From a bacterium (GTDB lineage Bacteria > Sysuimicrobiota > Sysuimicrobiia > Sysuimicrobiales > Humicultoraceae), in contig JBOGSD010000013.1 in assembly GCA_050695215.1 (NCBI GenBank), positions 1 through 59,460 of the forward strand: DNA of 59,460 nt, in the 5' to 3' direction. Numbering within the stretch: position 1 is the stretch's first letter; each line of letters starts with the position of its first letter. The translations under genes and the position numbers were made by a program. Of this stretch, positions 4,506-21,883 are shown one piece after another. The notes under the pieces were generated by a model. It saw nothing but the letters and a program-made list of their open reading frames with translations. It was not told the DNA's origin and did not search any database.

Positions 4506-5047
4506 GGACTCCTCCGATCGGGCGAGGGCTCTGTCTCCCGCCGGGATTCCTCGTACTGCCAGCGCCGGTGCTCATCAGACCAGAGACTCTTGAAGTAGGT
4601 GATGAGGGCGCGGATGTCGGCCTCAGTCAGTTTGTCCTTGAACGGCGGCATCGTCAGATCCGGGGTCTTGTTGAACGGATCACGCCATCCGTTGCTGATG
4701 ATTGCAGCCAGCTCCCGATCGCTGTGCCGCCACGTGTGCCCTGCGTCATCGTGGGGCGGGGGTGGCAGGTTTCCCCGGGCGTCGGGCCGCGTCCAGTTCG
4801 GTGCCCCCTCGGCCCGCGGCCCGTGGCAGCTCGCGCAGTAGCGGACATACAACTCGCGGCCGCGTGCGACCTCGGGCGGTTCGAGAGGAGGCAGGCCGGG
4901 TCCTGCCGTGTCGGCTGCGGGGCGGGCGCAGCCGGCCAGGAAGAGCGCGCAGGCGGCTGCGAAAGCCAGACGCGGCCGCCAGGCTTGCGCGGCAATGCTC
5001 CCCCCGAAAGACGACCCGCGCACATGCGCTACCGCACAGGACGCCAT
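4502..5047 (-). CDS. Monoheme c-type cytochrome, probable lipoprotein, paralog 1
   Basis: CASCH heme motif. LFLAGC lipobox-like sequence. Its stop overlaps the next start (ATGA). Confidence 0.8.
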   Translation of the reverse strand: MASCAVAHVRGSSFGGSIAAQAWRPRLAFAAACALFLAGCARPAADTAGPGLPPLEPPEVARGRELYVRYCASCHGPRAEGAPNWTRPDARGNLPPPPHDDAGHTWRHSDRELAAIISNGWRDPFNKTPDLTMPPFKDKLTEADIRALITYFKSLWSDEHRRWQYEESRRETEPSPDRRSP

Positions 5048-5148
5048 GTGCTCCCGCCGTCGGCGCTGTGAAACAGCCCGCCATCGGCCACCGCGGCTTG
5101 CACCTGGCGCTCGACTTCGTCTACCCGACCGTCCCCCACCAGGCCTGC

Positions 5149-5409
5149 TCTCCCGAGGCCGTCGCCTGCGTGCTGCGCGACTGGGAGGCCCTCCTCGCCT
5201 TCTACGTCGTCCCCGAATGCGACTGGCGGCGCGTCCGCACCACCAACGCCATCGAGCGTGCCTTCCGCGAGGTGCGGCGGCGCACCCGACCGATGACCTG
5301 CTTCACCAACCCAGCGAGCTGTGACCGCATCATCTATGCGGTCATGCACTACCTGAACAGCCAGTGGCAGGGACCTCTCTGGCGGCCCGAAATTACACAG
5401 AACTCTTGA
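5149..5409 (+). mobile_element. IS256-family (mutator-type) transposase C-terminal remnant
   Basis: The tail of ORF 4702..5409 reads WEALLAFYVVPECDWRRVRTTNAIERAFREVRRRTRPMTCFTNPASCDRIIYAV. This resembles the conserved TTNAIE...RRRT C-terminus, but the N-terminal catalytic part is missing. Confidence 0.65.
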
Positions 5410-6311: not shown

Positions 6312-8081
6312 TCAGGTTGCGCTACGGTGAACCTTCCCATTACGCACACCTCCGTCCTGTTGCCTTCTCCCCCCATCGCTCACAGCGTAGGCGTTGTGTA
6401 TGTACTGTTCGAGCATGCGTTGGGCGTTGAAGAAGGAACCGTTTAGGGCAATTGCCGACCGCATGACCCGCCCATACTCCTCCGGTCGATCGTAGAACAT
6501 GGGAACGATCACATGCTCGAGCTTGTCGAGAAGAGAGGCCACCTCGCTGGAGGGATCGCCTTCCGATTGCGGGCCGTCCCCGATTGACCATCCGGTCACT
6601 CCCTCGATATGCCCCTCGATCCACCAGCCGTCCAGGATGCTCAGGCTGGGGACTCCGTTGAGCGCGGCTTTCATGCCGCTGGTGCCTGAGGCCTCCTGCG
6701 GTTTTTGCGGGGTATTCAGCCAGAGATCGACGCCGGCGCATAACTGACGGGCCAGCGCCAGGTCGTACTCCTCCAGGTAGACTACAGCCAAAGTCTCCCG
6801 CAGCTCGTTGGCGGCCTGGAAAATCCTCCGGATAATGGCCTTCCCACCCTCATCCCGGGGATGTGCCTTCCCTGCAAAGATGACCTGAAGCGGCCCCGCG
6901 CGCCAGACAATCCGCCGCAGCCGGTTAATGTCAGAGAGGAAGAGATCCGCCCGTTTGTATGCGGTGGCGCGACGGGCGAACCCGATGGTCAGCACCTCCG
7001 GGTCGAGGCGTAGGCGCGTCCGCTCCTCCACGGCTTCGAACAACTCCGCTTTGGCCTGCGCATGGGCCTGCTTTATCTCATCCCTGGGAATGCCGGTCGC
7101 ATAGCGCAGGTAGAGGTTGTCCCGGCGCCATTCCGGAAGGTGACGGTCGAAGATCCGCTGGAACGGCGGCGCCGTCCAGGTGGCGGCGTGCACGCCGTTC
7201 GTGATGGAGCTGATCGGATAGCCCGGAAACATCGTTCGCGAGATTTCCCCGTGCCGCATGGCCACACCGTTGATGTACCGCGAGAAGTACAGGGCCAGAT
7301 AGGTCATATTCAGGACACCCTGCGGAAAACACCCATGTGCCTCCAAGAACCCGATCCGGTCCTCGCCGAGCACCTCACGGGCCAGAGCGAGTGGAAATTG
7401 ATCGTGACCGGCCGGCATCGGAGTGTGCGTGGTGAAGACGCATTGACCCCGGACGGCCTCTTTGTCCGCTTCGGTGGCGATAAGAAGCCCTCGCTCCCCG
7501 ATCCGCTCCTCCAGCAGTGCCAGAGCGAGCAGGGCAGCATGACCTTCGTTCATGTGGTAGGAGTCCACGCCCAGCGGCGGGTCGCCCAGGGCACGCAGGA
7601 GTGCCACGCCGCCAAACCCCAAGATGGCCTCCTGCCGGAGACGATAGCGCTCGTCGCCCCCGTAGAGGTGGTCCGTCAGACCCCGATCCTCGGGCACGTT
7701 CTCTGACAGGTCGGTGTCAAGGAAGTAGACGGTCACGTCTCCAGAGAGGCCGCGGAGACGGCAACGCCACGCGCCGACCTGCACGGAGCGCCCTTCAATC
7801 TGCACCGAGACGCGGGCCGCCACGGGGTCCAGGAACTCCTCCGGCGACCATACCACCGGGCTCTCGGACTGGTTCCCATGTTCATCGAGACGCTGGCGGA
7901 AATACCCTTGCCGGTGCAACAACGTGATTCCCACCATGGGGCACCCGAGATCGGCCGCGGCCCGCAGCGTATCGGCGGCCAGCACACCCAGGCCGCCAGC
8001 GTACGTGGGCATGGCAGCGAGGAGGCCAACCTCCATTGAGAAGTAGGCGACCGTTGGATGGTGCTGCGGCGTCCCAGGCAC
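6312..8081 (-). CDS. glgP: Alpha-glucan (glycogen) phosphorylase, GT35 short type
   Basis: 589 aa: [10 protein letters not shown]...[18 protein letters not shown]...[16 protein letters not shown] (PLP-Lys region). Confidence 0.85.
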
Positions 8082-8109: not shown

Positions 8110-9822
8110 TCAGACGATGAAGGGGTCCCAGCCGCCGTAACGGTTCCGGATGGGACCGCGCGGAATGCTCAGCACGATCAGGAGGGCGCCGGCGACGAGG
8201 GCGTTCACGCGGGCGGCGAGAGAGGCGCCTGGCAGGACCCAGAGCGCGACGGGAATCGCCAGGGCCAGCAAGATGTTGAGGAATCTGGTCACGCGCCCCA
8301 CCTCGGCGAAGGCGATGAAGACGACGGTGACGATCAGCGCCCCGAGGATGCTCTCTGCGTCCGCGGCGGCGCCGGTCGTCCCGAAGACCGCCCGTGAGGC
8401 GAAGAGCCAGGCACCCAGGGCCGCGCCGGCCAGCAGCGGCCACGGGACGTTGGCCCCCCAGAACATCTCCGCCCAAGGGTTCCGGCGTCGTCGTTCCACC
8501 CCGATCTCCTCCACCGGGCGAGGGAGGCTCCCGCCGATCCAGAACAGCCGCCAGGCGGACAGTCCCGCACGCCGCCCGATAACCAGGAACTGCACCATCG
8601 CGACAATCTCGTCGAGCGACAGCGTCACCATGATCAGCATCAAGAGCGCCGACGTCAGGCAGAGCGTGCACCAGGCCCCCACGGCCACCGGCTGGAGCAT
8701 GATCAGGATGACGCTGGTGATCCCCAGCGGGATCACGGCGAAGCCGAACATGGCCACCATCCACGGCATCGTCCGCCACCGCCGCGAGTCGCCCATCAGC
8801 CCCGAGAGGATCTCGATCAGGTAGGTGTAGGCGCCGAGCCCGGCATCGGAGATCGGGAAGGCGCGCGACACGTCGGAGGTCAGGACCAGCTCGGTCCCCT
8901 TACCGAAGATCGGGTCCCAGGCCGTCGGGATGTGCCCTAGCTGAAAGGCCGCCATGTAGCGCGACATGAAGAAGCTGAGAAAGGCCAGTGCGATGATCGG
9001 GCCGCGCTGCGGCCAGGTGGAGGGGCTGTAGGTCCAGCCCGGCGGGATGTCGGGCCCCGGCATCTCTGTGCGCATGGGGATGATCACGGCGAAGGCGATG
9101 ACCAGCATGCCGACCAGGGTGTCGTTGGCGTAGGCCACCGCGTCGGGCGACCAAAAGGCCAGGGGCGCGAACATCAGCCACAGCCCAACGACCGCGTTCG
9201 CCCAGGGCGCCCAGGGGCGGCGTCCCACGCTCAGCGCGCCGAAGGAGATGACCAGTAGCCCACTGATGATGTCGCTCCAGACCAGTGCGCCGGCACGGTA
9301 GCCGAAAGCCAAGGGACTGGCGACGAGCCAGGCGCCCAGCGGCAAGACCGCGATTTGGGCCCAGCGTTCCATCAACAGGTGCCGGGCCATCAGCACGCCC
9401 ATGTCGAGTTCCTTCGCCTTCGCGTCCGCTTGCGCGCTGGACGCCGGCTCGATCTCCTGGAGGAGGGCCGCCTCGTGCGCCAGCAGCGCCTCAGGCAGCT
9501 CGCGCACCAGCGCCTGCCGTTCCTGCATGGACTTCATCATTTCGATGTGCCCACGGGGATCGGTGTCCATGAAGCCCTGGGCCTCGGCATCGTGGCGGCG
9601 TTGCTCCGCGAACTCGCGCCGGCGCTCCCGTTCCAGGAGCGCCTGAAGCGCGCGCATCTCCTGAAGGTGTTCTAGCTTCGGCTGCACAGAGCCGGTGGGC
9701 GCTTCATGGGCCATCTCGTGCCCGGCGTCGCCGCCGGCCTCCGAGGACGGCTGCGGCGCCGCGCCGTGGGCGCCATGGTGGTCTGAAGAAACCCTATGGG
9801 AGTCTTTGTGATCTCCCTTCAT
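8110..9822 (-). CDS. Polytopic membrane protein: His-rich N-terminus, SPW-repeat-like segments, VKOR-like domain with a TM CxxC
   Basis: 570 aa: N-terminal HKDSHRVSSDHHGAHG; LVASPLAFGY / LMFAPLAFWSP segments; AWCTLCLTSALL in a TM helix. Confidence 0.45.
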   Translation of the reverse strand: MKGDHKDSHRVSSDHHGAHGAAPQPSSEAGGDAGHEMAHEAPTGSVQPKLEHLQEMRALQALLERERRREFAEQRRHDAEAQGFMDTDPRGHIEMMKSMQERQALVRELPEALLAHEAALLQEIEPASSAQADAKAKELDMGVLMARHLLMERWAQIAVLPLGAWLVASPLAFGYRAGALVWSDIISGLLVISFGALSVGRRPWAPWANAVVGLWLMFAPLAFWSPDAVAYANDTLVGMLVIAFAVIIPMRTEMPGPDIPPGWTYSPSTWPQRGPIIALAFLSFFMSRYMAAFQLGHIPTAWDPIFGKGTELVLTSDVSRAFPISDAGLGAYTYLIEILSGLMGDSRRWRTMPWMVAMFGFAVIPLGITSVILIMLQPVAVGAWCTLCLTSALLMLIMVTLSLDEIVAMVQFLVIGRRAGLSAWRLFWIGGSLPRPVEEIGVERRRRNPWAEMFWGANVPWPLLAGAALGAWLFASRAVFGTTGAAADAESILGALIVTVVFIAFAEVGRVTRFLNILLALAIPVALWVLPGASLAARVNALVAGALLIVLSIPRGPIRNRYGGWDPFIV

Positions 9823-10994
9823 GGCCTCATCATCGTCTCATCATGGACGGGCATGCCGCCGCGCAGCATGTCGTTCACCTCATCCAACCGGCGGGCGTCC
9901 AGCTCCACATCCGGAGGCGCCGGCTCGACCTCCGCCAGCCACGCCGGCGTCTCCAGTCCGTTCTCCCGGTACCAGGCCCAGGGGTCGGCCTTCAGCGCGG
10001 CGACGATCATCGGCAGTGTCTCGCGCAGGCGCCGCTTCGGCGCCCATGAAAGAAGCGCCCGGGCCCGCGCAATATCCAGTTCGAAGTGGTCGTCTGCCAG
10101 CTCAATCATCCAGGGCTTGATGAACGGCTTCCGCCCCAGCGGAAGCGTATCCTGAAGCCACGCGCCCAGTTTCGCCGGAGACTTGGGGATCTGCCGGGTT
10201 TTCCACTCCTCGCCGTGGATGAGACCTCCCAGGAGGACCTGCATCTCTCCGTACCCCACCGTCTCGGGCTCGCCGGCCAGGAGAACCAGCTCGGACGGCA
10301 GGTCCCCACGGCGTTCCACGAGCCGGACGTAGAGGTCGACCACATCCTGCAGATGGATCAGCGCTTGTCCGTGGGAGAGATTCCCCGGGAAGGCGTAGGC
10401 GGTGAGGTCCCGCTCGAAGATTCGCTGAATCTGGCGGGGCAGCGGCGCGGTGTGACCCAGGTCATCGTACACTCCGGCGAGTCGCAGGATCACCGCGGGA
10501 ATGTCGCCACGCTCCGTCCGGATCACCTGCTCCGTGCGCACCTTCGACTCCGGGTAGGGCCAAGCCGGGCGCAGCGGCCAGTCTTCAGTGATCGGGCGCC
10601 CCGGGCTGGTGGGCGCGTGCACCAGCATCGTGCTGGCGAAGATGAACTGCTCCACGCGGAACATCTCGCGCAGTAGACGGAGCAGCCGCTGCGTGCCACG
10701 GACGGTGACCTTGTCGTAGAGCGGGCTGGGGGCGCCGGAGAAATCGTAGTACGCCGCCAGGTGGACGACCGAGGCGAGACGGTCGCCGTGGATGTCGCGG
10801 ACCGCCTGTAGGGCCCGCCGCAGGCTGGGTTCAGAGGTCAGATCCGTATACAGACACTCCGCCGTGGGCGGCGGATGGGACGGGGCCCGCCGGTCGAATC
10901 CCACGACGGAGAACGTCTCGCTGAACCGCTTGGCTACCGCGTAGCCGAGGTAGCCGCTGCTCCCCGTGACGAGAATCGTTCCGGCTTCTTTCAT
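9819..10994 (-). CDS. NAD(P)-dependent epimerase/dehydratase (extended SDR)
   Basis: ILVTGSSGYLGYAV Rossmann motif. 391 aa. Confidence 0.8.
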   Translation of the reverse strand: MKEAGTILVTGSSGYLGYAVAKRFSETFSVVGFDRRAPSHPPPTAECLYTDLTSEPSLRRALQAVRDIHGDRLASVVHLAAYYDFSGAPSPLYDKVTVRGTQRLLRLLREMFRVEQFIFASTMLVHAPTSPGRPITEDWPLRPAWPYPESKVRTEQVIRTERGDIPAVILRLAGVYDDLGHTAPLPRQIQRIFERDLTAYAFPGNLSHGQALIHLQDVVDLYVRLVERRGDLPSELVLLAGEPETVGYGEMQVLLGGLIHGEEWKTRQIPKSPAKLGAWLQDTLPLGRKPFIKPWMIELADDHFELDIARARALLSWAPKRRLRETLPMIVAALKADPWAWYRENGLETPAWLAEVEPAPPDVELDARRLDEVNDMLRGGMPVHDETMMRP

Positions 10995-11013: not shown

Positions 11014-11030
11014 CACTACGACAAGAAGTG
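11014..11030. promoter_or_regulatory. Operator site 7: CACTAC-GACAA-GAAGTG
   Basis: Lies in the divergent intergenic region, 20 bp from the epimerase start (10994) and upstream of 11143. A TATATT -10-like hexamer is at 11036-11041. Confidence 0.5.
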
Positions 11031-11142: not shown

Positions 11143-12108
11143 GTGCTCAGGAAGCTGACGCTCATTGGGCTGTTAATCTTTCTGACCAGTCCGGCTCGGG
11201 CCGAGCCGATTGTGACGATCCGTGGCCATGTCCTCAACGGCACATTTGACCGGCGGCCGCTTCCCGGACGGTTCGTTCAAGTCGTCCGGATGAGCAGGGA
11301 AGGCGTCGTGATCGCGTCAGTCCGGACAAACGCCAACGGGGAATTCACCGCGAGGATACCCGAAAGCGACGGCACCTACGTCGTGGTCGCTCGCCATGGC
11401 GAGGTGGAGTACGCCAGTGAGCCGTTCCGGCTGAAACCCGGTCCCCCGGCGCGGATCAACGTCGTCGTGTACGAACCCACAACCCTCCGGCCGCCGCTCG
11501 TCTTTCCCTTTCGCATTGTCTTGATCGATCGTTTCGGGGCCGGCGTCATTTCCGTGCGAGAGGTCGTGGCCATTGCAAACCCATGGCCTCGCACATACAT
11601 CGGTCAACGTTCGCCGCAAGAGGGGTTCACGTTGACCCTGGCGTTGCCCCAAGGCGCCGAAGCGGTCGAAGTGCTGCGCGGTCTCGGGTCGGCGTCCCTC
11701 GAGAAAGGACGCCTCATCGACCGAGCCCCCTTGCAGCCCGGAGAGCACGAGATCGCGTATGCATACCAAGTCCGTTATTGGGGCACGAAAGCGCGGTTGA
11801 GGTGGGCGTTGGACGAGGACACCGGAAGCATGGATGTCTTCGCGCCCGACCAGGGTGAACGGCTCGCCAGCAATGTCCTAGAGGCCAAGCCTTCCGGCAT
11901 GGTCAAAGGGCAGCGATTCCTTCGCCTGGCCCGAGACGAGCTGCGCAGTGGTGAGGTCGTCGAAGTGATAGTGACGGGATTGCCGGGGAACTACTCGCCG
12001 GTCGTGCCCTTCCTGGCGATCGTGCTGGCGGTGGTCCTTTCAAGCAGCACGCTCATGGCGATCCGGAAGGCCAAGAAGGACCAGATCAGCTCGATGGCGT
12101 CCGACTGA
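11143..12108 (+). CDS. Membrane-anchored exported protein with carboxypeptidase-regulatory-like domain, paralog 2
   Basis: ORF 10966..12108. GTG 11143 gives signal peptide VLRKLTLIGLLIFLTSPARA. IRGHVLNGTF...NANGEFT. C-terminal TM helix. Confidence 0.6.
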   Translation: MLRKLTLIGLLIFLTSPARAEPIVTIRGHVLNGTFDRRPLPGRFVQVVRMSREGVVIASVRTNANGEFTARIPESDGTYVVVARHGEVEYASEPFRLKPGPPARINVVVYEPTTLRPPLVFPFRIVLIDRFGAGVISVREVVAIANPWPRTYIGQRSPQEGFTLTLALPQGAEAVEVLRGLGSASLEKGRLIDRAPLQPGEHEIAYAYQVRYWGTKARLRWALDEDTGSMDVFAPDQGERLASNVLEAKPSGMVKGQRFLRLARDELRSGEVVEVIVTGLPGNYSPVVPFLAIVLAVVLSSSTLMAIRKAKKDQISSMASD

Positions 12109-12784
12109 GCATCCTGACGATTTGCAAGAGCTGAGCGGCATGCTGGCCGAACAAGATATCGACCCGCTGGACACGGATCGCGCCCTGAGGGTCCACCACG
12201 ACAAAACCCATTTGGGCAACTCCCCTCATGCCCCCCATGGGTTGCCCCCGTTTCGGCAGCATATCGTAGCGCTCCGCCACCGCGAGATCACCGTCTAACA
12301 GTACCGGAAACGAGATCCCGGTGATCCGGAGGAGTCTGCGGGATTCCTCCGGCGTGTCCCTGTTCACCACATAAACGTCTGCGCGCTCACTGAGGACTTC
12401 CCTTTCCCTTGACCGCTGCAGCTCCACGAGCTGCTCGAGACAGAGCTGTCAGCCGACCCCCATGTGGAAAATGATCACGGTGGGGCGGCCCTTCCCCCGA
12501 GGGACGGTATGTTTCTCACCGTCGGCGGTGGAAAGTGCGAATGAGGGTGCCTGCCTCCCGACCAGGGTATTGACCTCCTGCGAGACCTCCCGTCCGCCGG
12601 CCGGACCCGGCAACCGTGTGTCCGTCGATTGCTGCTCGCCGCGCGATGCCAGCCAGATGCCTGCGACGAGGAGAGCGAGCACGATCGCCCCGCCCGCCCA
12701 CCAGGCGATCGAGGTCCTGGACCTGCGGCGTCCGCGCCGATGCTGCGGGGGCGAGCGCTTCACCCTGGCCTTTTGCGGGGTCAT
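12086..12784 (-). CDS. Membrane-anchored Prx/redoxin-like selenoprotein candidate (UxxC; Sec codon 12449-12451)
   Basis: ORFs 12449..12841 and 12086..12427 share one frame. Joined, they read VIIFHMGVG-U-QLCLEQLVELQRS...FPVLLDGDLAVAERYD. The TGA aligns to the first Cys of CQPC in paralog 26160..26780. ATG 12784 overlaps the cytochrome stop (ATGA). Confidence 0.7.
12418..12434 (-). promoter_or_regulatory. SECIS-like hairpin 14 nt downstream of TGA 12449-12451
   Basis: mRNA sense GCAGCUC-GUG-GAGCUGC: 7-bp stem with a GU-containing apical loop. Confidence 0.4.
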
Positions 12785-13284
12785 GGCTGTTTCTCCCCCG
12801 GGGAGCCGGTCTGCTCGCGCCTGCTCTCTCCCAGTTGCCATCGGCGGTGCTCTTGCGACCAGAGGCTCTTGAAGTAGGCGATCACGGCGCCGATCTCTTC
12901 ATCGCTAAGTTTGTCTTTGAAGGGCGGCATCGTAAGCTCCGGCGTCTTGTTGAACGGATCCCGCCAGCCATTCCGGATGATTTGGGACAACTCCTTGTCG
13001 CCGTGCCGCCACGTATGCCCGGTGTCATCGTGCGGCGGCGGCGGGAGATTGCCGCGAGCGTCCGGTTTGGTCCAGTCCGTGGCCCCTTCCGCGCGCGGTC
13101 CGTGACAGCTCGCGCAGGACTTCAGATATACCGCTCGCCCCTCAGCGACCTCCGCAGGATCGAGCGGAGGAAGTCTTCCCGATGTCGTCTCTGGACCGAG
13201 ACGCGTACAGGAGGTCAGGGCGAGGATCACCAGTATTAGCAAGAACAGCGAACCGAAGCCGAGCCCGTGTGGTCCGATTCTCAC
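12781..13284 (-). CDS. Monoheme c-type cytochrome lipoprotein, paralog 2
   Basis: LALTSC lipobox and CASCH heme motif. GTG start at 13284. Confidence 0.8.
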   Translation of the reverse strand: MRIGPHGLGFGSLFLLILVILALTSCTRLGPETTSGRLPPLDPAEVAEGRAVYLKSCASCHGPRAEGATDWTKPDARGNLPPPPHDDTGHTWRHGDKELSQIIRNGWRDPFNKTPELTMPPFKDKLSDEEIGAVIAYFKSLWSQEHRRWQLGESRREQTGSPGEKQP

Positions 13285-13307
13285 AGAACCCGCTGCGCCA
13301 AGGTTCT

Positions 13308-14216
13308 CTACTGCGTCACCTTCCGCCAGCTTATGCCGCCGCCCCGACTCGCCAGGAGCGTTCCGTCGGCGGCAATGGCGAAGAGGCGCTGCGGAAGGCG
13401 GGGGTGTTGTGCGAGCGCCGCCAGGCTTCCCGCCCCTGAGGGAAGAGTCACTGGGCGCCAGGTCCGTCCTGCGTCCGGGGAACGAAAGAGCCCGGCAGGG
13501 CCTGCGGCAAAGACCAGGCGCGGGTTGCGGAGATCGACAAGTACGGCGGCAGCCTCACTGGGGGTGGGCCACCGGCCCACCTGGCGCCACCCTCAGAAAC
13601 AATCCATGCTGATGTAGGGGCCCTCTTTGGTCCCGGCATAGAGCCAGCCGGTATTCATGCTGCCCTCGAGGGGCGAGTGCGCGAGCGCCAGGACCGGCTG
13701 TGCGGCGGGGCCGCCATCCATGCGCTGCCATCGCTGGCCGCTATCCTCCGTCCGGTACATCCCCTTTCCGCGCAGGGAGACAAAAAGGGTTGCGCGCCGG
13801 GAGGCGTGGATGGCCAAGGCCTCGACGTCCGTGGAGGAGAGCCCGGTGTTGATCTGCTGCCACGTGGCGCCGCTGTCCCGGCTCATGAGGACCCCTGCAC
13901 CGGGGCCGGCCGCGTATATTACGTCAGGCTTCTCTGGATTGACCACGACCTGGCTGACGCCGGTGGACGCAAAGCGGGCGGGAAGGGGAAGCGGCACCCA
14001 GCGACGCCCGCCGTCTTTACTGCGGAACAGCTGGGCCGAGGCGGCCTTGAGCAGATCGCCATTGCGCGGATCGACTGCAAGGCCGATTTGCGGGCGCCCC
14101 GGCGAAACAGACACGGGCGCCGCCACCCCGGAGGAACTCGATTCGCGCCTGTAGACGACGACAGCCCCCAGCAAGAGGAAGACCGCCAGGGACGCGATCA
14201 GGATGCGTGCCCTCAA
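13308..14216 (-). CDS. TM-anchored six-bladed BNR/Asp-box beta-propeller (Ycf48/sialidase-like) with in-frame TGA 13593-13595
   Basis: ORFs 13593..14369 and 13308..13580 share one frame. Asp-boxes: SKDGGRRW, SRDSGATW, TEDSGQRW, SMDCF-TGA-GW, SPDAGRTW, SRGGGISW. Start tentatively TTG 14216, overlapping the Rieske stop. Confidence 0.5.
13563..13581 (-). promoter_or_regulatory. SECIS-like hairpin 11 nt downstream of TGA 13593-13595
   Basis: mRNA sense GGUGGGCC-GGU-GGCCCACC: perfect 8-bp stem. Confidence 0.4.
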
Positions 14217-14884
14217 GCGATGCCCCCCGACTCGACGTCGGTGACCACGATCTGCTCGCCGCGGATCTCGTACAGGAACGTCCGCGGCGGGCGCGGCGCA
14301 GGGCCGGAAAGAACGCGGCCCGGCTGCTCGGGGTCTGCTGGATCGAAGATGGAGAGGTGGCAGGGGCACGCCATCAGGGCGTGCTGGCGCTCCTTGGGCG
14401 GCCTGTAGCCGCCATAGCCAGCCGTAACCTCTGCGTGGTTCGAGACATAGTTATAGATGCACCCCAAGTGGGGGCAGATGCGGGAGAAGACAATGAGATT
14501 GCTCTCTCGTCCAACAAACTCGGGTTTGTTAATGGCGCGGGCCCAGTCCCAAGGGAGCCTGACTTTCCCGGGCAGGCGGACCACCACTGCAGGCACGTTC
14601 GCCGAGCGCAGCCCTTCCGGCGTGTACTGCGGGTACTTCTGAGTGAATACGAAATACTTGAAGTCCCACGACCTCTGGACCTCGGACAGCGCCGCGGCGA
14701 CGGTCGTCTCCCCTCGAGGGATGTCGCGCACGGTAGGACGATACAGCACCTCAAATGGCTTCATGTTGGGTTTGAGCATCCTCAGGAGAGGCGATAAGAA
14801 GGCAGCGGCGGCGGCGACAAGCGGCAGGGACGTGACGAGTTTCAGGAAGCCGCGACGATCCAGGCCCTTTAGCTCCGTGGCCAT
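14213..14884 (-). CDS. Rieske [2Fe-2S] protein with Tat signal
   Basis: DRRGFLK twin-arginine signal. CPHLGC ... CPCH cluster motifs. Confidence 0.85.
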   Translation of the reverse strand: MATELKGLDRRGFLKLVTSLPLVAAAAAFLSPLLRMLKPNMKPFEVLYRPTVRDIPRGETTVAAALSEVQRSWDFKYFVFTQKYPQYTPEGLRSANVPAVVVRLPGKVRLPWDWARAINKPEFVGRESNLIVFSRICPHLGCIYNYVSNHAEVTAGYGGYRPPKERQHALMACPCHLSIFDPADPEQPGRVLSGPAPRPPRTFLYEIRGEQIVVTDVESGGIA

Positions 14885-14909
14885 CCTTCCTCACCCCGCG
14901 CGTGCTTTT

Positions 14910-14926
14910 CCTTACAGATTGTAGTG
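14910..14926. promoter_or_regulatory. Operator site 1: CCTTAC-AGATT-GTAGTG, overlapping the Rieske-operon promoter
   Basis: Minus sense TTGTCC(14942-14947)-N18-TACAAT(14918-14923). The operator overlaps the -10. RBS GGTGAGGAAGG precedes ATG 14884. Confidence 0.55.
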
Positions 14927-14967
14927 TAAACCTGCCCTGTAGGACAACCTGTGGAAAGCCCGGGCTT

Positions 14968-15873
14968 CTAAACCGGACAAACCGTCAAAATGGGGAAGAC
15001 ATTCAACGCCCAGACGAGCCCGTAGAGCCCGGCCGCCGGTCCCAGGACAACCGCCACTGCCACCCAGCTCTCGAGGAGCGCCCGAGGGGACGCTCCGGGC
15101 AGGTCCACGCCTCGCCCCAGCAGCAGTGAGAGCCGGACATCTGTCACGCTCGTGAAAGCGCTGGCCGGCGTGACAGCGGGCGCCGGGTTGAGGAGCTTGA
15201 GCATGGCAGAGGAGAGGCTGACCGAATCGCCAAGTCGCGCCAGGGCGTACTGGTCGGCGGCAAGCTCCAGGGCGGCCTGCTGTCGCACGGCCAGAGCCTT
15301 CGCAACGGGAAGATAGAAGAACCCGGCGGCCAGCGCCCTGGACACAAGCAGAGCCAGGGGGTCCCTGTGCACAGCATGGCTCGCCTCATGGAGGAGGACG
15401 GCTTCGAGCTCGCCTTCATCGAGGCGCTCGATCAGCCCGGTGGAAATGATGATCTTTGGCGCAAAGAGGCCCGCGGTGAGCGCGTATGGCCGGACGTCGC
15501 CGACGGCGACGACGTGATCCATCAACCCCAGCGTGTGGAGGACAGGGAGGAGCTCTAAGGGCAAGCCCACAGCGTGACGCCTGAGGGACCGGACATACCG
15601 CCACGTCTCCCACCATTTGCTCAGCGCGGCGGCGAGCCAGAAGACGGCGGCGGCCAGACCCGCCAGCATTACAACGACCGCCAAGCCCTGAACCACATCC
15701 GGCAGGACGCGCCACACACGGAGGCACATGTGGCCCAGCGCCGTCAAGGCTCCCCGGAAGGCCTTTGCGCCAAGCACGGCGGCCACGCCAAGGGCAAGAG
15801 AGGCCACGACGGACACGACCACGACGCCCCACAGCGCACGGACTGCCTCTTTACGGTAATCGGCTTGGTCCAC
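14968..15873 (-). CDS. M56-family (BlaR1-like) membrane metalloprotease without extracellular sensor domain
   Basis: 301 aa, multiple TM helices, LLHEASHAVHRDPLALL (HEXXH). Confidence 0.8.
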   Translation of the reverse strand: MDQADYRKEAVRALWGVVVVSVVASLALGVAAVLGAKAFRGALTALGHMCLRVWRVLPDVVQGLAVVVMLAGLAAAVFWLAAALSKWWETWRYVRSLRRHAVGLPLELLPVLHTLGLMDHVVAVGDVRPYALTAGLFAPKIIISTGLIERLDEGELEAVLLHEASHAVHRDPLALLVSRALAAGFFYLPVAKALAVRQQAALELAADQYALARLGDSVSLSSAMLKLLNPAPAVTPASAFTSVTDVRLSLLLGRGVDLPGASPRALLESWVAVAVVLGPAAGLYGLVWALNVFPILTVCPV

Positions 15874-15918: not shown

Positions 15919-15935
15919 CGCTACAAAGTCTAGTG
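15919..15935. promoter_or_regulatory. Operator site 2: CGCTAC-AAAGT-CTAGTG, upstream of the M56 gene
   Basis: Minus sense TTGACC-N18-TAGACT, with the operator over the -10. Confidence 0.5.
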
Positions 15936-15952: not shown

Positions 15953-16201
15953 TCAACGACGCGACTTCTTCGGCCTCCCCCAGGCGGCGGTCAGCACGAT
16001 GGCCGCGCCGGCCAACAGCATGCCCTGGGCCACGACGTTCCAGAGATGCTCGGTCAGGGCGATGCCCGTACCGTGAGCAGCAAGCACCGCGAACCCGCCG
16101 AGGATCGAGGTCCATCCGAGCGCCAGGACCAGCAGATGCCGCATGGCGTGAGGGCGGCGAGGGCTGAGCGCCATGCGAGAGCCTGATTTTGACCGAGGCA
16201 T
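15953..16201 (-). CDS. Small two-TM membrane protein
   Basis: 82-aa ORF with two hydrophobic helices, positioned inside the operon. Confidence 0.4.
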   Translation of the reverse strand: MPRSKSGSRMALSPRRPHAMRHLLVLALGWTSILGGFAVLAAHGTGIALTEHLWNVVAQGMLLAGAAIVLTAAWGRPKKSRR

Positions 16202-16210
16202 AAAGAGCGT

Positions 16211-16639
16211 TCAGATGTTAGGGCGCACGTCGACCGGGAAGGTCAGCCGGCCCGTTGAAGTCCCGCGACGGATGATCACTTCAAGCCAGGCAGGGCCAAC
16301 GTTCAGGAACTTGATTTCGGTCCGATAGACTCCAGGTGCGACGGGACTCGTCCTTGCCAGGTCCGGCCTCTGCCTCTCTGCCCCATACCGGAGGGTCACC
16401 CCGTCAACGGGGACAGAGCGCTGCCGGTTGTCGGTAAGCACTACCTCGACCGGAATTGGGCCGGTCCTTGGCGGGTCGGGGGCCATGCGGATCGTGACTT
16501 GCACCTGCGTGCCGGCCAGATCGACCGCCCCCGACCGGGGAGGGGTTTGGAGGACCGTGTTGAGCAGCGCCAGGCCCGCAAAGAGGATGACGCCGAAGCC
16601 CGCGAGGTAGACGACCTGTTTCCTCCGGCGCCCCTTCAA
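16211..16639 (-). CDS. TM-anchored FixH/YtkA-like domain protein
   Basis: 142 aa. N-terminal anchor, then a beta-rich domain (VQVTIRMAPDPPRTGPIPVEVVLTD...YRTEIKF). Confidence 0.45.
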   Translation of the reverse strand: MKGRRRKQVVYLAGFGVILFAGLALLNTVLQTPPRSGAVDLAGTQVQVTIRMAPDPPRTGPIPVEVVLTDNRQRSVPVDGVTLRYGAERQRPDLARTSPVAPGVYRTEIKFLNVGPAWLEVIIRRGTSTGRLTFPVDVRPNI

Positions 16640-16677: not shown

Positions 16678-18630
16678 TTATGCCCGGCCGGGAGCCAGCC
16701 GCCGCCGCCCCGGAAGCACTGCGACAAGGGTGCCCGCGGTGATCACGCCAGCCCCCACCCAGATCCAGAACACGAGGGGATTCAGCAGGATCCGCAGGCG
16801 TGCCTCCCCTTCGATCACACCGCTGAAGATGACATACAGGTCGTCCCGAGGCGTCGATCTGAGACCTATCAAAGTCACGGGCTGCTGGGAGGCCAGGTGC
16901 ATGACTTGGGCCGGGCTGAGCTCGCCTAAGTCGCGGCCGGCGTTCGACACGGAGATCCGGGCAGCCATCCCGGCCCGGGTGCTGTCGCGATAGGGGATCA
17001 CCCCGTTGAGGGTCAGGCGGTACCGCCCGATCTGCACCTGGCCCCCCGGAGCGAGGCCCGTTTCGACCTGACGCGAAAACGCGGAGGAGGCCGTGATCCC
17101 CACGACCATCAACAGCACGCCGACGTGGACGATGTAGCCTCCGTATCGCTGCGGGTTCACGCGAAGCAGGGAGAAAACGCCTCCAGCCATCCCCTCGCCA
17201 AGGCGCCGCCGAGCCGCGAGTCCGCGGCCGAACTCACTGAGCGTGATGGCGACAACGAAGACCGATAGTACGAAACCGCTCAGGGCCGCAGGCTTGCGGA
17301 TGCCGAAGACGATCAGGACCACGCCTGCGGCCGCGGCCAGCATCCCCGCCGCGTAGAGCCTCCGGCCGAGGCGGGCGGGGGACTCCTGCACCCATGGGAT
17401 ATGCGTGCCGATGCCCATCAGCAGGAGCGTCAACAGGGCAATGGGCACGAAGACCTGGTTGAAGTACGGCGGCCCGATGAAGATCTTGATGCCCTTGACG
17501 GCCTCGTAGAGCATAGGGAAGGTCGTGCCCAGGAATACGGTCGCAGCGGCGGCGGTGAGCACGACGTTGTTGAACAGGAACGAGGCCTCCCTGGAAAGGA
17601 GGGACTCCAGGTAGTTGTGCTCGCGCAGCCGGTCCATGCGCGCCAACAGCAGGCCAAGAGTCGCCGTCATGGCGACGGCGAGGAAGATCACGAAAACCGG
17701 GCCGATCGAGGACCGGGCAAAAGAGTGGACGGAGGACACCACCCCGCTGCGCGTCAAGAATGTTCCGAAGATCGAGAGGCCGAACGCCACGATGATCAGC
17801 CCAAGGTTCCAGACGCTCAGCATGCCGCGGCGCTCCTGCACCATCACCGAATGCAGGTAGGCGGTCATCACGAGCCAGGGCATAAACGCGGAGTTCTCAA
17901 CAGGGTCCCACCCCCAGTATCCGCCCCACCCCAGGACGTGATAGGCCCACCACCCCCCGATCGTCAGGCCCATGCCCAGGAAGTACCAGCTCATGATGGC
18001 CCACCGGCGCATGCTTCTGAGCCACTCCTCGCCCAGCTCCCCCGTGATGAGCGCGGCCACGGCGAAGGCGAAGGGGACGGTGATCCCCACGTAGCCCAGG
18101 TACAGCGTGGGGGGATGGATGAACATCCCCGGATCCTCGAGGAGCGGGTTCAGGTACCGCCCGTCCGCCGGGGGAAAGGGGAGTCTGTCAAACGGGTTCG
18201 ACACGCTTGAGAGAAGAAGGAGAAAGAAGGCCAGCACGCCCATGAGGACCGCGATCACGTAGGGCATCAGGCGCTTGTGCCGGTCACGATTGATCAGCAC
18301 GACCGCCGCGCCATAGAGGCTGAGGATCCAGGCCCACAGGAGGAGTGAGCCGTCCATACTCCCCCAGAAACCGGAGATCCGGTACGCCAGAGGGGTGGAG
18401 AGGTTGGTGTTCTCGGCGACATAGCTGACCGAGAAGTCGCGCCCGATGAAGCTCCCCACCAGGATCGCCGACGCCACCGTCAGAAGGAACGCGATCGCAA
18501 TCACTCCCCGCCGGGCTCCGATGAGGAGGGGCTCGTGGGCGCGCCGGGCCCCGGCCACCGCGGCCGTGATCGCGTACGCGCTCGTGACGAGGCTGGCGAG
18601 GACCGCGAAGTATCCGAGATCCGCCATCAT
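16678..18630 (-). CDS. ccmF: Cytochrome c-type biogenesis heme lyase CcmF/NrfE family
   Basis: 650 aa, polytopic. W-rich motif WGGYWGWDPVENSAFMPWL. Confidence 0.85.
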   Translation of the reverse strand: MMADLGYFAVLASLVTSAYAITAAVAGARRAHEPLLIGARRGVIAIAFLLTVASAILVGSFIGRDFSVSYVAENTNLSTPLAYRISGFWGSMDGSLLLWAWILSLYGAAVVLINRDRHKRLMPYVIAVLMGVLAFFLLLLSSVSNPFDRLPFPPADGRYLNPLLEDPGMFIHPPTLYLGYVGITVPFAFAVAALITGELGEEWLRSMRRWAIMSWYFLGMGLTIGGWWAYHVLGWGGYWGWDPVENSAFMPWLVMTAYLHSVMVQERRGMLSVWNLGLIIVAFGLSIFGTFLTRSGVVSSVHSFARSSIGPVFVIFLAVAMTATLGLLLARMDRLREHNYLESLLSREASFLFNNVVLTAAAATVFLGTTFPMLYEAVKGIKIFIGPPYFNQVFVPIALLTLLLMGIGTHIPWVQESPARLGRRLYAAGMLAAAAGVVLIVFGIRKPAALSGFVLSVFVVAITLSEFGRGLAARRRLGEGMAGGVFSLLRVNPQRYGGYIVHVGVLLMVVGITASSAFSRQVETGLAPGGQVQIGRYRLTLNGVIPYRDSTRAGMAARISVSNAGRDLGELSPAQVMHLASQQPVTLIGLRSTPRDDLYVIFSGVIEGEARLRILLNPLVFWIWVGAGVITAGTLVAVLPGRRRLAPGRA

Positions 18631-19052
18631 GGTCGGAATGCGTCGGCTGGGCCGCTCGGAGCCGTGCGCGTCCAGCGGCGGAGGGTGGAGATGGCGATGG
18701 CCGCCGCCAGGACAAGGACGGCGAACGGCCCGATCCAGACGATGAGGCTCAACCCTCGTTTGGGCGGCGCCGCCAGGATGGACTCACCGTACCGGCTCAC
18801 GAAATAGGTGATGATTTCTTCTGGGCTCTTGCCCTGCTTGAGTTTGTCCCTGATAAGAGCCCGCATCTGCTCGGCCAGTTCTGCGTTCGATTCCGCGACG
18901 GTTTGGCCTTCGCAGACCGGGCACATCAGCCGACCGGAGATCTCCCAGACGCGCTCATCCAGCGTCTGGGCACCAGAGCGTTCAGCAGAGAGCAGCCAGG
19001 CGAGAGCGGTCACCAAGACCACAAGCGACAGCACGCGTTGGAGACTCCTCAT
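18627..19052 (-). CDS. ccmH: Cytochrome c-type biogenesis protein CcmH
   Basis: LMCPVCEGQTVAESNAELA...SPEEIITYFVSRYGESIL followed by a TM helix. Confidence 0.8.
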   Translation of the reverse strand: MRSLQRVLSLVVLVTALAWLLSAERSGAQTLDERVWEISGRLMCPVCEGQTVAESNAELAEQMRALIRDKLKQGKSPEEIITYFVSRYGESILAAPPKRGLSLIVWIGPFAVLVLAAAIAISTLRRWTRTAPSGPADAFRP

Positions 19053-19579
19053 CGGGACGCGCTGCCGGACAAGAGCGGCTCCACGTTGCTGATGATGAGC
19101 TCCCGCGTGACAGGCCCCAAGTGCTTCAGGGCAATCCGTCCCGAGCGGTCGATGAAGAAGGTCTCGGGGATCCCGGTCACTCCGTAATCCTGCAGGATCT
19201 TCCCGCTGAGGTCAGGTCCGTTGGGATAGGTTTTGCCGAACTCCCGAATCATGGCCAGCGCGTCCTGTTGCCGGTCCCAGATATTCACCCCGACCAACAC
19301 CAGCCCGCGGGGGCGATAGGTCACCCACGTCCATTGCAGGACAGGTGACTCCTGCTTGCAGGCGGTGCACCAGGATGCCCAAAAGTTGATGAGAACAACT
19401 CTGCCGCGAAGGTCCGCCAGACGGAGGCGGTCGCCTTCGAACAGGTCGAGCGTGAAGTCGGGCGCCGGCGCGCCGACCAGCGGCGTGCTCCACGGCGGCT
19501 TCTCGCGGGCCACGCCCAGCGCCAGAACCGCCAGAACGGCGGCCAGGGCCCCCAGGACGGCCGCCCTTTGCCAGCGCAT
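19049..19579 (-). CDS. Thiol:disulfide oxidoreductase, DsbE/CcmG/ResA-like
   Basis: INFWASWCTACKQESP thioredoxin motif with an N-terminal anchor. Confidence 0.8.
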   Translation of the reverse strand: MRWQRAAVLGALAAVLAVLALGVAREKPPWSTPLVGAPAPDFTLDLFEGDRLRLADLRGRVVLINFWASWCTACKQESPVLQWTWVTYRPRGLVLVGVNIWDRQQDALAMIREFGKTYPNGPDLSGKILQDYGVTGIPETFFIDRSGRIALKHLGPVTRELIISNVEPLLSGSASR

Positions 19580-19895: not shown

Positions 19896-20648
19896 TCAGA
19901 AGAACCGCCAGAGATCCAGGCCGAACCGGGCAAACGCCCTTTGCGCCCAGATGCTGACGTAGAACATCTTGTTCGTGATGAGAAGAGTCCCAACGGCGGC
20001 CAGCGTCAGCCCGCTCACGGCCTCGAGGGGGCGGGACAGTCGCTGCAACCAGCGGAGCGCGCCCACCGCCCGGGTGAAGGCCAATCCCGTCAAGATGAAC
20101 GGCAGTCCGAGCCCGAGCGCATACACCAGCAGCAGCAGGGCACCGGTCTTCACCGTGCCCACAGCCCCCGCGTAGAGGAGAATCGACGCGAGGATCGGTC
20201 CGATACAGGGGGTCCAGGCAAAGGCGAATGCCGCGCCCAGGAGGGCTGGGCCCAGAAACCCGCCCTTCATGCCCTCCAGGCGAAAGCGGCGCTCCCTGGC
20301 GACGAGCCCGATGCGGAGTACCCCAAGCAGGTACAGCCCCATGACGATGATAAACGCACCGGAGATCCGGTTCAGGATGAAGCGGTAACCGCCGAGCAAT
20401 GCCCCGACAGCCGAAGCGGACGCTCCCAGCGCGACAAACACGACGGTGAATCCGAGCACGAACAGCAGAGACTGCCAGAATACCCGGCTCGTCCGGACGG
20501 CTCCACCCGCCTGCAGTCCTTCTGAGGTGATCCCGGTGACGTACGAGAGGTAGCCGGGGACGAGCGGGATCACGCAGGGAGAGAGGAAGGAGACCGTGCC
20601 GGCCAGGAAGGGGATGACCCAGCCGATGGACGCTGGATCAGCGGGCAT
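19896..20648 (-). CDS. ccdA: Cytochrome c biogenesis thiol-disulfide transporter CcdA
   Basis: FLSPCVIPLVPGYLSYVTG ... AWTPCIGPIL motifs. Confidence 0.85.
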   Translation of the reverse strand: MPADPASIGWVIPFLAGTVSFLSPCVIPLVPGYLSYVTGITSEGLQAGGAVRTSRVFWQSLLFVLGFTVVFVALGASASAVGALLGGYRFILNRISGAFIIVMGLYLLGVLRIGLVARERRFRLEGMKGGFLGPALLGAAFAFAWTPCIGPILASILLYAGAVGTVKTGALLLLVYALGLGLPFILTGLAFTRAVGALRWLQRLSRPLEAVSGLTLAAVGTLLITNKMFYVSIWAQRAFARFGLDLWRFF

Positions 20649-21309
20649 TCAACAGGACCTCGATGCGCTGCGTGAGGGTCTGCTTCCCCAGATCTCCCAG
20701 GAACCCGCCGAGGTAGCGGCCGCGGATGATCCCCTCGCGGTCGATAAAGTAGGTGGTCGGAAGGTTCGCGATCCGATAGATCTCAGTGATCTTGCCCGTC
20801 GTATCGCGCACCATAGGATACGTGATGCCGAACTCCTTCACGAAGGCCATGGCATCGTCCCAAGTGTCCTGTACGATGTCCACGCCGAGGAACACAAGGC
20901 CCCGTTCTTTGTAGCGTTGATACGTGGCCTCCAGGTCTCTGGCCTCCAAGCGACATGGCCCGCACCATGATGCCCAGAAGTTCATGACCACGGCCTTGCC
21001 TCGCAAGTCGCTGAGCTTAAGCTCGCCACTGGTTTCTCTCAAAAGGGAAGCGCTGAAATCGGGAGCGCGATCGCCAACGTTTAGGCCAACCTTCGCCGGC
21101 GGAGCAGCGGTGAGGCCGGACGGCGCCTGGGTAGTGGGGCGACGTTCCAGTGGGGTTTCCGCTCGAGTGGAAGGCGAACGTTCCGAGACGACTGTCGGCG
21201 TGCCAGAGAAGTAGACGAAGAAGCCAGTGATGGCCACCGCGGCAACCCCGAGAACCAACCCGACCTTGAGGAGGCCGCGCTTGGAAGTTTCCCGAGGATC
21301 GACCGACAT
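20638..21309 (-). CDS. TlpA-family thiol-disulfide oxidoreductase
   Basis: NFWASWCGPCRLEA with an N-terminal TM anchor. Confidence 0.8.
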   Translation of the reverse strand: MSVDPRETSKRGLLKVGLVLGVAAVAITGFFVYFSGTPTVVSERSPSTRAETPLERRPTTQAPSGLTAAPPAKVGLNVGDRAPDFSASLLRETSGELKLSDLRGKAVVMNFWASWCGPCRLEARDLEATYQRYKERGLVFLGVDIVQDTWDDAMAFVKEFGITYPMVRDTTGKITEIYRIANLPTTYFIDREGIIRGRYLGGFLGDLGKQTLTQRIEVLLNAR

Positions 21310-21333: not shown

Positions 21334-21762
21334 TCACGACCTCTTGCTGCGCCGTTCCTGGATGAGTCGCTCGAGCGCGGCGAGCTTCTCCGGATCGACC
21401 TCCTGCAGGACCTCGACGAACTGGGCCACAGCGACATCGCCAAACTCGTGGACCAGGGCCGCCGCGACGTCGTGAGATACACTGGCCAGAAACGCCTGGC
21501 GGTCAACGCGGGGAGAGTAGCGGTAATTGCCTCGGCGGTCATTGCGGCGCAGCAGGCGCTTGTCGACCAGACGGTTCATCACGGTCATCACGGTGTTGAA
21601 GGCCACGGGGTGCCTGACCTTGACCTCGTCCCACACCTCGCGGATTGAGGCAGTCCCTCGCCGCCACAGCACCTCCATGACCTCGGCCTCCAGGCCTCCA
21701 AGCACCCGCCCCAGCCGACGGCCTTTCAAGCGGAAGGTCGTCACGATCTTGCCCTTCTTCAT
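21334..21762 (-). CDS. BlaI/MecI/CopY-family winged-helix repressor
   Basis: ORF 21334..21777: LGGLEAEVMEVLWRRGTASIREVWDEV...AFNTVMTVMNRLVDKRLLRR. ATG 21762 follows GGTGGGGAG. Confidence 0.8.
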   Translation of the reverse strand: MKKGKIVTTFRLKGRRLGRVLGGLEAEVMEVLWRRGTASIREVWDEVKVRHPVAFNTVMTVMNRLVDKRLLRRNDRRGNYRYSPRVDRQAFLASVSHDVAAALVHEFGDVAVAQFVEVLQEVDPEKLAALERLIQERRSKRS

Positions 21763-21796
21763 CCGGCTGCTCCCCACCTTGACCGATGCGGATTTT

Positions 21797-21813: not shown

Positions 21814-21883
21814 TTATAGGGAGAAATGTGTCAATGGCAATGGACAGGAATTGCCGCGTTTGACCCGTCCGAAAGGAGACATC

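Follow-up and report, generated by a model that had tools for sequence, protein, structure and literature searches.

The 59,460-nt stretch of DNA analysed here (contig JBOGSD010000013.1 of assembly GCA_050695215.1, from a bacterium of the Sysuimicrobiota; hereafter the window) carries a minus-strand operon whose four genes encode, in order, a Rieske iron-sulfur protein, a beta-propeller, a c-type cytochrome and a membrane-anchored redoxin. The core of the operon is a pair of adjacent genes, the first for a six-bladed BNR propeller that has a D-C-F-C/U-G-W site and the next for a monohaem c-type cytochrome. We propose, with moderate confidence, that the operon is a selenium-using, Armatimonadota/Chloroflexota-type version of a widespread and uncharacterised copper-island redox module on the outer face of the membrane. 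An earlier annotation made without database searches (the sequence-only reading) had described the four genes as an uncharacterised outer-face electron-transfer module with its own regulated promoter. That interpretation is partly supported: it was right in seeing conserved, apparently uncharacterised, outward-facing genes with a link to copper, but wrong on which genes make up the unit and on its independence from bc complexes and from CcdA.

Propeller relatives were scanned in one genome per species, giving 80 loci. A cytochrome c homologue lies directly downstream of the propeller in 73 of these, and the pair spans Chloroflexota, Armatimonadota, Gemmatimonadota and Alpha-, Beta- and Gammaproteobacteria. 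Among the neighbouring genes, CcdA (54 loci), TlpA-like proteins (54-62), DUF411/CopG (56) and SCO (34) were frequent, and multicopper oxidase (19), BlaI (13), M56 (10) and CopCD (6) were rarer. The redoxin with selenocysteine (Sec) was found at 15 loci, and a CarboxypepD_reg-like (CPD-like) gene and a Rieske gene at one locus each; outside this lineage the pair occurs without Rieske or Sec-redoxin. On a Burkholderia thailandensis plasmid annotated in RefSeq, the consecutive genes encode a hypothetical protein (the propeller), a c-type cytochrome, SCO, TlpA, CcdA, a DsbD-domain protein and DUF411, with a multicopper oxidase, a copper-binding protein and an RND pump further along. Many cultured bacteria have the pair in their copper islands, among them Halomonas, Bradyrhizobium, Burkholderia (on plasmids) and Aromatoleum. 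Its current annotations are only 'hypothetical', 'sialidase' or 'glycosylhydrolase', and literature searches on the pair (Ycf48-type proteins with copper resistance; selenoproteins with BNR) returned nothing.

The propeller carries repeated Asp-boxes behind an N-terminal transmembrane segment read from the sequence, and matches Pfam BNR/Sortilin-Vps10 at 60 bits. Its score against the NCBIfam 'glycosylhydrolase' F510_1955 (NF045728) was 113.7 bits, under the curated equivalog cut-off of 175, and against NCBIfam Ycf48 it was 32 bits (cut-off 326). Pfam PSII_BNR was matched at 30 bits, just over its 27-bit cut-off, and no photosystem gene was found among the window open reading frames (ORFs) scanned. 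A structure model of the Cys-form homologue P0137 showed six four-stranded blades (pLDDT 87), and its structural neighbours were generic (GH74, PDB 3b7f, Ycf48 and DAIP, TM-scores ~0.5-0.6). The propeller alignment, run as a profile against 1.84 billion representatives, drew 175,623 hits with giant multi-repeat BNR proteins at the head of the list; the count is uninformative on the size of the C-x-C/U subfamily. The cytochrome c has a lipobox (LALTSC), a haem motif (CASCH) and a conserved MP motif providing the Met ligand; it matches Pfam Cytochrom_C at 51.3 bits and shows the CxxCH and distal Met of class I c-type cytochromes. In the window protein and 61 homologues, a His-rich PPH-x3-GHTW-x-H-x-D motif, possibly a second metal site, is conserved between the haem motif and the Met ligand.

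Two of the four products, the propeller and the redoxin, are predicted to be selenoproteins. In the propeller an in-frame TGA, absent from the sequence-only reading, falls within the sequence M-D-C-F-*-G-W. A search of 5.8 billion proteins recovered many homologues of ~205 aa that end exactly at MDCF, and full-length homologues of ~290-320 aa that carry D-C-F-C-G-W, with D, C and F invariant; gene callers split the propeller in two wherever UGA is used. Over the 80 species-genome loci the codon at this position is TGA in ~20 (Chloroflexota, Armatimonadota or Actinomycetota) and TGC/TGT in ~52 (Proteobacteria, Gemmatimonadota and cyanobacteria). A hairpin resembling a selenocysteine insertion sequence (SECIS) follows the TGA in 19 of 19 TGA loci, those of L019 and L021 having a different sequence at the same position. 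The mean folding energy over that stretch was -13.5 kcal/mol in the TGA forms and weaker, at -9.1, in the Cys loci (p=3e-5). Other genes here stop at TGA, and a variant genetic code is therefore not at work. Rfam at gathering thresholds returned one tRNA only and no SECIS family. The propeller is probably a new selenoprotein family; keyword searches of a 2026 review of the prokaryotic selenoproteome (PMC13188914) turned up nothing matching a C-x-U propeller. A second, paralogous BNR propeller often stands beside the C-x-C/U propeller (L153, 3144-3920; L167, 2798-3883; also L032, L034, L067 and L076). That of L167 has HIHG-type motifs and no D-C-F-C-G-W motif, and forms a unit with BlaI and M56 that is divergent from a Rieske gene.

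The redoxin matches Pfam AhpC-TSA (64.8 bits) and Redoxin (37.1 bits) and, as read from the sequence, has an Arg-rich tail followed by a transmembrane segment and no PxxxT/SxxC signature of peroxiredoxins. Its in-frame TGA lies in a GVG-U-QLC active site, and TGA was present in all 11 homologues found by a motif regular expression. In an alignment of 14 sequences, the downstream hairpin GCAGCUC-GNG-GAGCUGC showed compensatory two-sided changes in two of its seven pairs, synonymous at the codon level. The Sec-redoxin accompanies the pair solely in Chloroflexota/Armatimonadota-type genomes (15 of 80 species genomes) and always lies directly downstream of it (11 loci).

Upstream of the operon, a co-directional string of genes encodes two TlpA-like proteins, CcdA, CcmH and CcmF. 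CcdA and the TlpA-like genes lie 5-8 kb from the operon in this same cluster, and the usual thiol-reductant route is therefore available. The sequence-only reading had the redoxin bypass the thioredoxin/CcdA route, which is unnecessary given these genes and their frequent presence beside the pair elsewhere. It also allowed electrons to pass to or from the redoxin. Flow to the redoxin from the Rieske protein and cytochrome c is unlikely, as their high-potential centres cannot act as reductants of a thiol/selenol couple and only transfer in the opposite sense is downhill. Between ccmF and the M56 gene are two small membrane-anchored ORFs without a family hit (16211-16639 and 15953-16201), and the 142-aa ORF of the two resembles, by eye only, an Ig-like FixH/YtkA-type domain.

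The four genes are tightly packed, and on this point our coordinates agree with the sequence-only reading. The propeller TTG start overlaps the Rieske TGA stop (TTGA, 14213-14216), 23 nt separate the propeller and cytochrome c genes (13285-13307), and the redoxin ATG overlaps the cytochrome c TGA (ATGA, 12781-12784). All four products have an export or anchor signal (Tat, transmembrane segments or lipobox, read from the sequence), likewise as first described. The window order M56-Rieske-propeller-cytochrome c-redoxin is also found on contigs L107, L109 and L153, and the Rieske/propeller stop-start overlap takes the form ATGA on L107 and L109 and GTGA on L094 and L010. Since gene order recurs on independent contigs (L107, L109, L153 and L094), the arrangement is not due to chance. 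The co-occurrence of all four families, suggested earlier as a check, holds within the lineage but not across the 80 species genomes, where the pair is common, the Sec-redoxin restricted and the Rieske gene present once, as a remnant. The GC content of the window is ~66%. Its right-hand part contains secY, rpoA and the gene of a tRNA pseudouridine synthase, and the region is therefore chromosomal.

The window Rieske protein is, by its sequence, of the bc-complex type. Its Pfam Rieske score of 19.8 bits is slightly under the 20.3 cut-off; the CPHLGC and CPCH boxes are present, and the [2Fe-2S] ligand boxes and disulfide cysteines are invariant across 16 homologues. The Tat motif DRRGFLK, with an RR that is invariant across homologues, precedes a hydrophobic stretch. 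The protein is 79-80% identical to those encoded by Rieske genes directly upstream of cytochrome b in relatives. This position was seen for each of six close homologues checked, at 66-80% identity, and their operons are of one type, encoding in order an uncharacterised protein of ~520 aa, a redoxin of the AhpC/TSA family, a cytochrome c with two haems, Rieske, cytochrome b, a pair of small proteins, a fusion of cytochrome b with 4Fe-4S domains, and FlpD. In a metagenome scan with the Rieske alignment as query, cytochrome b was directly downstream in 67 of 80 loci. The absence of a cytochrome b partner from the window, pointed out in the sequence-only reading, was confirmed by tblastn over the 59 kb. 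That reading would have been given up if the Rieske gene belonged to a bc complex encoded elsewhere, a situation that is closely approached by these identities and gene neighbourhoods, with the cytochrome b of the window genome itself not located. The bc-type operon of this lineage (L001, L003, L004, L006, L009 and L091) is unusual in this composition, the second of its cytochromes b being a fusion with 4Fe-4S ferredoxin domains. Besides the AhpC/TSA redoxin, ccm genes and a CarboxypepD_reg-like protein sometimes precede it; cupredoxin genes adjoin it in L003, L004 and L006.

About 11 of the 80 metagenomic Rieske loci are in island contexts with M56, BlaI, propeller or TlpA. On L146, L147, L149 and L151 an M56 gene is followed by Rieske and then TlpA genes, while on L167, L170 and L174 Rieske is divergent from a propeller-BlaI-M56 unit. 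L094 has a Rieske stop overlapping the propeller start, and L093 has propeller-cytochrome c-redoxin-BlaI-TlpA-CcdA with M56-Rieske further along; in L093, L107, L109 and L153 the gene immediately before the island Rieske is M56. These island copies retain every invariant residue of the bc-operon copies. An island-specific Rieske clade was considered and rejected, as island copies were scattered among bc-operon copies, and not monophyletic, in neighbour-joining trees (no support values). In the species genomes Rieske stands upstream of the propeller once, in L010, the closest of them, as a frameshifted remnant of which only the 3' ~300 nt align, with at least two frameshifts. In place of the 5' half, L010 has a degenerate HMA-like ORF (7310-7549) directly downstream of an operator copy at 7215. 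We read the island Rieske as a recurrent extra copy of a bc subunit recruited to the island, and not as a novel type of Rieske protein.

The operon has its own promoter-like site with a palindromic operator over the -10 hexamer, which had been proposed before and is real: the sequence TACAnnnTGTA is unique in the window (0.01 expected), and the wider family CACTAC-N5-GTAGTG, allowing up to two mismatches, has eight matches in the window where 0.58 are expected. Seven of the eight are in intergenic or promoter regions, including those of the copper P-type ATPase and of the divergent blaI/copCD region, thus of the repressor itself. Of 11 island loci, 8 have the operator no more than 220 nt before the start of Rieske, against 0 of 62 bc-operon loci. 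It also occurs in L010 and L011, and reads CACGACA-N3-TGTCGTG in relatives and TACA-N3-TGTA in the window. The genes for a BlaI/CopY-family repressor and a BlaR1-like M48/M56 protease without sensor domain are both in the window. In Synechocystis, the presence of copper leads PetP, an M48/M56 protease without a sensor domain, to degrade the BlaI-family repressor PetR, which binds GACA-N3-TGTC between the -35 and -10 of the gene under its repression (bioRxiv 10.1101/2020.07.31.226407). By analogy with PetR/PetP and from the form of the operator, the operon is predicted to be induced by copper together with the efflux ATPase and copCD, and the position of the operator at the -10, in common with these two, predicts induction by copper excess and not by shortage. 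The suggestion in the sequence-only reading to try copper induction fits the operators at copper genes and the copper-island context of the pair. Downstream of the copper ATPase are genes for a cupredoxin-domain protein (30407-31492), a protein with a weak Metal_resist match (31500-32270) and a COX2-like CuA protein (33336-34199); no window ORF was both large enough and unassigned for oxidase subunit I.

From these features we infer the following function for the module. The BlaI-family repressor and the sensor-less M56 protease would act as a PetR/PetP-like pair, so that the operon is derepressed when copper rises. The Cys-x-Sec site of the propeller may then bind or redox-cycle Cu(I), or possibly a thiol/selenol substrate, and pass electrons to the lipoprotein cytochrome c, which would hand them to the respiratory chain at its high-potential end. 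The Sec-redoxin, fed via the CcdA/TlpA route encoded upstream, would keep the Cys-Sec site reduced. The Rieske protein would be a copper-regulated extra subunit of a bc complex whose cytochrome b partner is encoded elsewhere, serving to replace copper-damaged subunits or to couple the quinol pool to the island cytochrome c, and would not be a stand-alone electron donor to the redoxin. A more specific form of this proposal is possible, though we lean against it: the pair may be a new outer-face oxidoreductase (e.g. Cu(I):cytochrome c or thiol/selenol:cytochrome c) with a Cys-x-Cys/Sec centre on an uncatalogued BNR selenopropeller, wired to the quinol pool via a dedicated copper-regulated Rieske paralogue and controlled by a PetR/PetP-type switch outside cyanobacteria.

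Several observations weigh against this account. The copper link of the pair is drawn from gene context and a predicted operator, and the repressor does not have the C-terminal Cys motif of CopY. One operator copy precedes a PBP2 gene, an unexpected target in a copper regulon and one that brings to mind the involvement of BlaI systems with beta-lactams; the signal for the regulon may therefore be envelope stress in a wider sense. Genes for selA, selB, selD and tRNA-Sec are not in the window. Thermodynamic z-scores of single hairpins were not significant against shuffles in this GC-rich DNA; the SECIS case draws on the comparison of TGA with Cys forms and on the compensatory changes. The Rieske remnant in L010 means that Rieske is dispensable for the other three genes, which are intact there. 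Finally, candidates for the cytochrome b of the window genome were taken from a homologue search with a relative's cytochrome b, and the two best unnamed NCBI candidates proved to belong to other assemblies.

The four proteins could instead form a self-contained outer-face chain, with electrons passing directly between the Sec-redoxin and its partners, the Rieske protein and cytochrome c, and with no part played by the bc complex or CcdA. The conserved Rieske/propeller overlaps (window, L107, L109, L094 and L010), the four-gene order repeated on L107, L109 and L153, and the placement of all four proteins on the outer side of the membrane would be expected of such a unit. We nevertheless regard it as improbable, as the Rieske is indistinguishable from those of bc operons and the operon has no electron-input partner for it, the L010 copy is a pseudogene remnant beside three intact genes, CcdA and TlpA are nearby and widely co-occur with the pair, the pair occurs without Rieske or Sec-redoxin outside the lineage, and reduction of a thiol/selenol redoxin from high-potential centres is uphill. 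The decayed L010 gene, the IS remnants near the window operon and the nesting of the window Rieske among bc-operon Rieskes, with island copies not monophyletic, agree with a Rieske gene that owes its place to rearrangement alone; having been displaced or duplicated from a bc operon, it would stand beside an unrelated three-gene copper module and have no functional link to it. Such an accident is hard to reconcile with an island Rieske in at least four arrangements (upstream of the propeller, after M56, divergent from propeller-BlaI-M56, and beside TlpA) and with the regulon operator upstream of Rieske in most island loci and in no bc locus, and we give it little credence.

Another explanation is copper-dependent respiratory remodelling like the PetRP switch between cytochrome c6 and plastocyanin in cyanobacteria, with an alternative Rieske and haem carrier brought into use as copper status shifts, the propeller as a Ycf48-like assembly factor and the redoxin as a maturation aid. 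PetR/PetP-type control of electron carriers is established in Synechocystis (bioRxiv 10.1101/2020.07.31.226407), cupredoxin genes adjoin the bc operons of three relatives (L003, L004 and L006), Ycf48 is among the nearest solved propellers, and cytochrome c maturation genes lie co-directionally upstream. Against these points, copper-resistance islands and plasmids of proteobacteria combine the pair with genes for a multicopper oxidase, an RND pump and DUF411 but lack a Rieske gene, and an operator that lies at the -10 and is shared with the efflux ATPase and copCD should give induction when copper is in excess, not when it is short. The replacement of the invariant C-x-C/U site by Sec points to redox or metal chemistry, not scaffolding. 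We consider remodelling unlikely, and favour the copper-island redox module. The features on which these readings draw are collected in Table 1.

Table 1. Positions of the operon, its predicted control elements and neighbouring features in the 59,460-nt window.
Feature	Positions	Strand	Remarks
Rieske gene	14213-14884	-	223 aa; Tat signal/anchor; CPHLGC and CPCHLS boxes; bc-complex type
Propeller gene	13308-14216	-	302 aa; N-terminally anchored, six-bladed BNR/Asp-box; predicted selenoprotein, D-C-F-U-G-W
Propeller Sec codon (predicted)	13593-13595	-	in-frame TGA
Propeller SECIS-like hairpin	13563-13581	-	GGUGGGCC-GGU-GGCCCACC; starts 14 nt past UGA
Cytochrome c gene	12781-13284	-	167 aa; monohaem lipoprotein; LALTSC lipobox, CASCH haem motif
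Redoxin gene	12086-12784	-	232 aa; membrane-anchored Prx-like thiol:disulfide oxidoreductase; U-x-x-C site
Redoxin Sec codon (predicted)	12449-12451	-	in-frame TGA in GVG-U-QLC
Redoxin SECIS-like hairpin	12418-12434	-	GCAGCUC-GUG-GAGCUGC, seven pairs; starts 17 nt past UGA
Promoter-like site	14947-14918	-	-35 TTGTCC 14947-14942; 18-nt spacer; -10 TACAAT 14923-14918
Palindromic operator	14926-14910	-	minus strand CACTACAATCTGTAAGG; overlaps -10
Operator copy	11014-11030		promoter region of CPD-like gene
Operator copy	15919-15935		M56 gene
Operator copy	21797-21813		blaI/copCD divergent region
Operator copy	24931-24947		downstream of DUF881
Operator copy	27495-27511		upstream of copper P-type ATPase
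Operator copy	34602-34618		precedes PBP2 gene (34750-36624)
Operator copy	38522-38538		2 mismatches
BlaI/CopY-family repressor	21334-21777	-	Penicillinase_R match; CopY_TcrY 42.5 bits, under cut-off
M48/M56 (BlaR1-like) membrane protease	14968-15873	-	301 aa; HEASH (HExxH); no sensor domain
CopC-CopD fusion	21851-24160	+	shares operator
DUF881 gene	24157-24882	+	operator 24931-24947 downstream
Copper P-type ATPase	27544-30168	+	two HMA domains; shares operator
TlpA-like gene	20638-21309	-	co-directional, upstream of operon
CcdA gene	19896-20648	-	co-directional, upstream of operon
Second TlpA-like gene	19049-19579	-	co-directional, upstream of operon
CcmH gene	18627-19052	-	co-directional, upstream of operon
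CcmF gene	16678-18630	-	co-directional, upstream of operon
CPD-like gene	11143/10966-12108	+	called from 11143; anchored at both ends
Second-copy CPD-like gene	2769-3857	+	intact
Second-copy Sec-redoxin	3812-4505	-	TGA 4167-4169; 1-nt insertion shifts frame
Second-copy cytochrome c	4502-5047	-	intact
IS256-type transposase fragment	5068-5409	+	beside second copy

The CPD-like gene converges on the operon and overlaps the 3' end of the redoxin gene by 23 nt, as the sequence-only reading had described together with the repetition of this pairing in a second copy. The same converging arrangement is found on L014, L107 and L109. The second copy (2769-5409) is a partial, decaying duplicate, in which the propeller is reduced to a C-terminal remnant comprising the last blade; no DNA-level repeat was detected between the two copies, the duplicate being visible at the protein level only. 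Adjoining the module are genes for a VKOR-SPW fusion (8110-9822) and an NAD-dependent epimerase (9819-10994). Counterparts of both (46-58% identity) are near the propeller-cytochrome pair in the proteobacterial L067 and L089, with the VKOR part only in L061 and the epimerase only in L076, pointing to a second island component, one that forms disulfides or is linked to quinone.

Assigning a function to the pair would close a gap in the understanding of how copper is handled in the periplasm, and tractable hosts allow a direct test. If correct, a copper-regulated spare Rieske would be a new way of protecting or rewiring the bc complex, and a PetR/PetP-like regulon beyond the cyanobacteria would extend the reach of a sensing mechanism described only recently.

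Compared with known systems, the window Rieske resembles the Rieske subunits of bc complexes (QcrA/PetA/PetC) in its Tat signal/anchor, CxHxGC and CxCH boxes and disulfide cysteines. It differs in having no cytochrome b nearby or anywhere in the 59-kb window, in standing under its own operator-controlled promoter and in being translationally coupled to a propeller gene. Extra Rieske copies have precedents: some organisms have several exchangeable Rieske paralogues, and differentially regulated copies are known, as with the PetC paralogues of cyanobacteria; a paper on Mesorhizobium loti is entitled 'Two Rieske Fe/S proteins'. The repressor and protease of the window may be likened to the copper-responsive PetR/PetP, with which they share the BlaI family, the M48/M56 family and its HExxH motif, the lack of a beta-lactam sensor domain, an inverted repeat of the form xACA-N3-TGTx at or between the promoter hexamers, and a predicted control of electron carriers in the periplasmic or lumenal space. 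Unlike petR and petP, the two window genes are not adjacent, the repressor gene heading the long ccdA/tlpA/ccm string and the protease gene lying 6 kb away, and the predicted regulon is larger (copper ATPase, copCD, the Rieske operon, the CPD-like gene and PBP2).

The redoxin can be compared with the Prx-like thiol:disulfide oxidoreductases, a selenoprotein family catalogued in the 2026 review (PMC13188914). It shares with the Prx-like UxxC selenoproteins covered there (PF00578) the AhpC/TSA fold, a UGA-encoded U-x-x-C and a downstream hairpin, and differs from them in being membrane-anchored and always directly downstream of the propeller-cytochrome pair. The propeller has the Asp-box repeats and beta-propeller fold of Ycf48/HCF136, F510_1955, GH74 and PDB 3b7f, but falls under the curated cut-offs of F510_1955 and Ycf48. 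To our knowledge, neither a D-C-F-C/U-G-W site nor an obligatory cytochrome c neighbour is known from the Ycf48, F510_1955 or GH74 families. The periplasmic copper components CopG/DUF411, SCO, TlpA, CcdA/DsbD, the CueO/CopA multicopper oxidase and CopCD share islands and compartment with the pair, as well as a thiol-based chemistry that depends on imported reductant; none of them is a propeller or a cytochrome. In this company, the haem partner of the propeller implies electron exchange with the respiratory chain, and not with O2 or thioredoxin.

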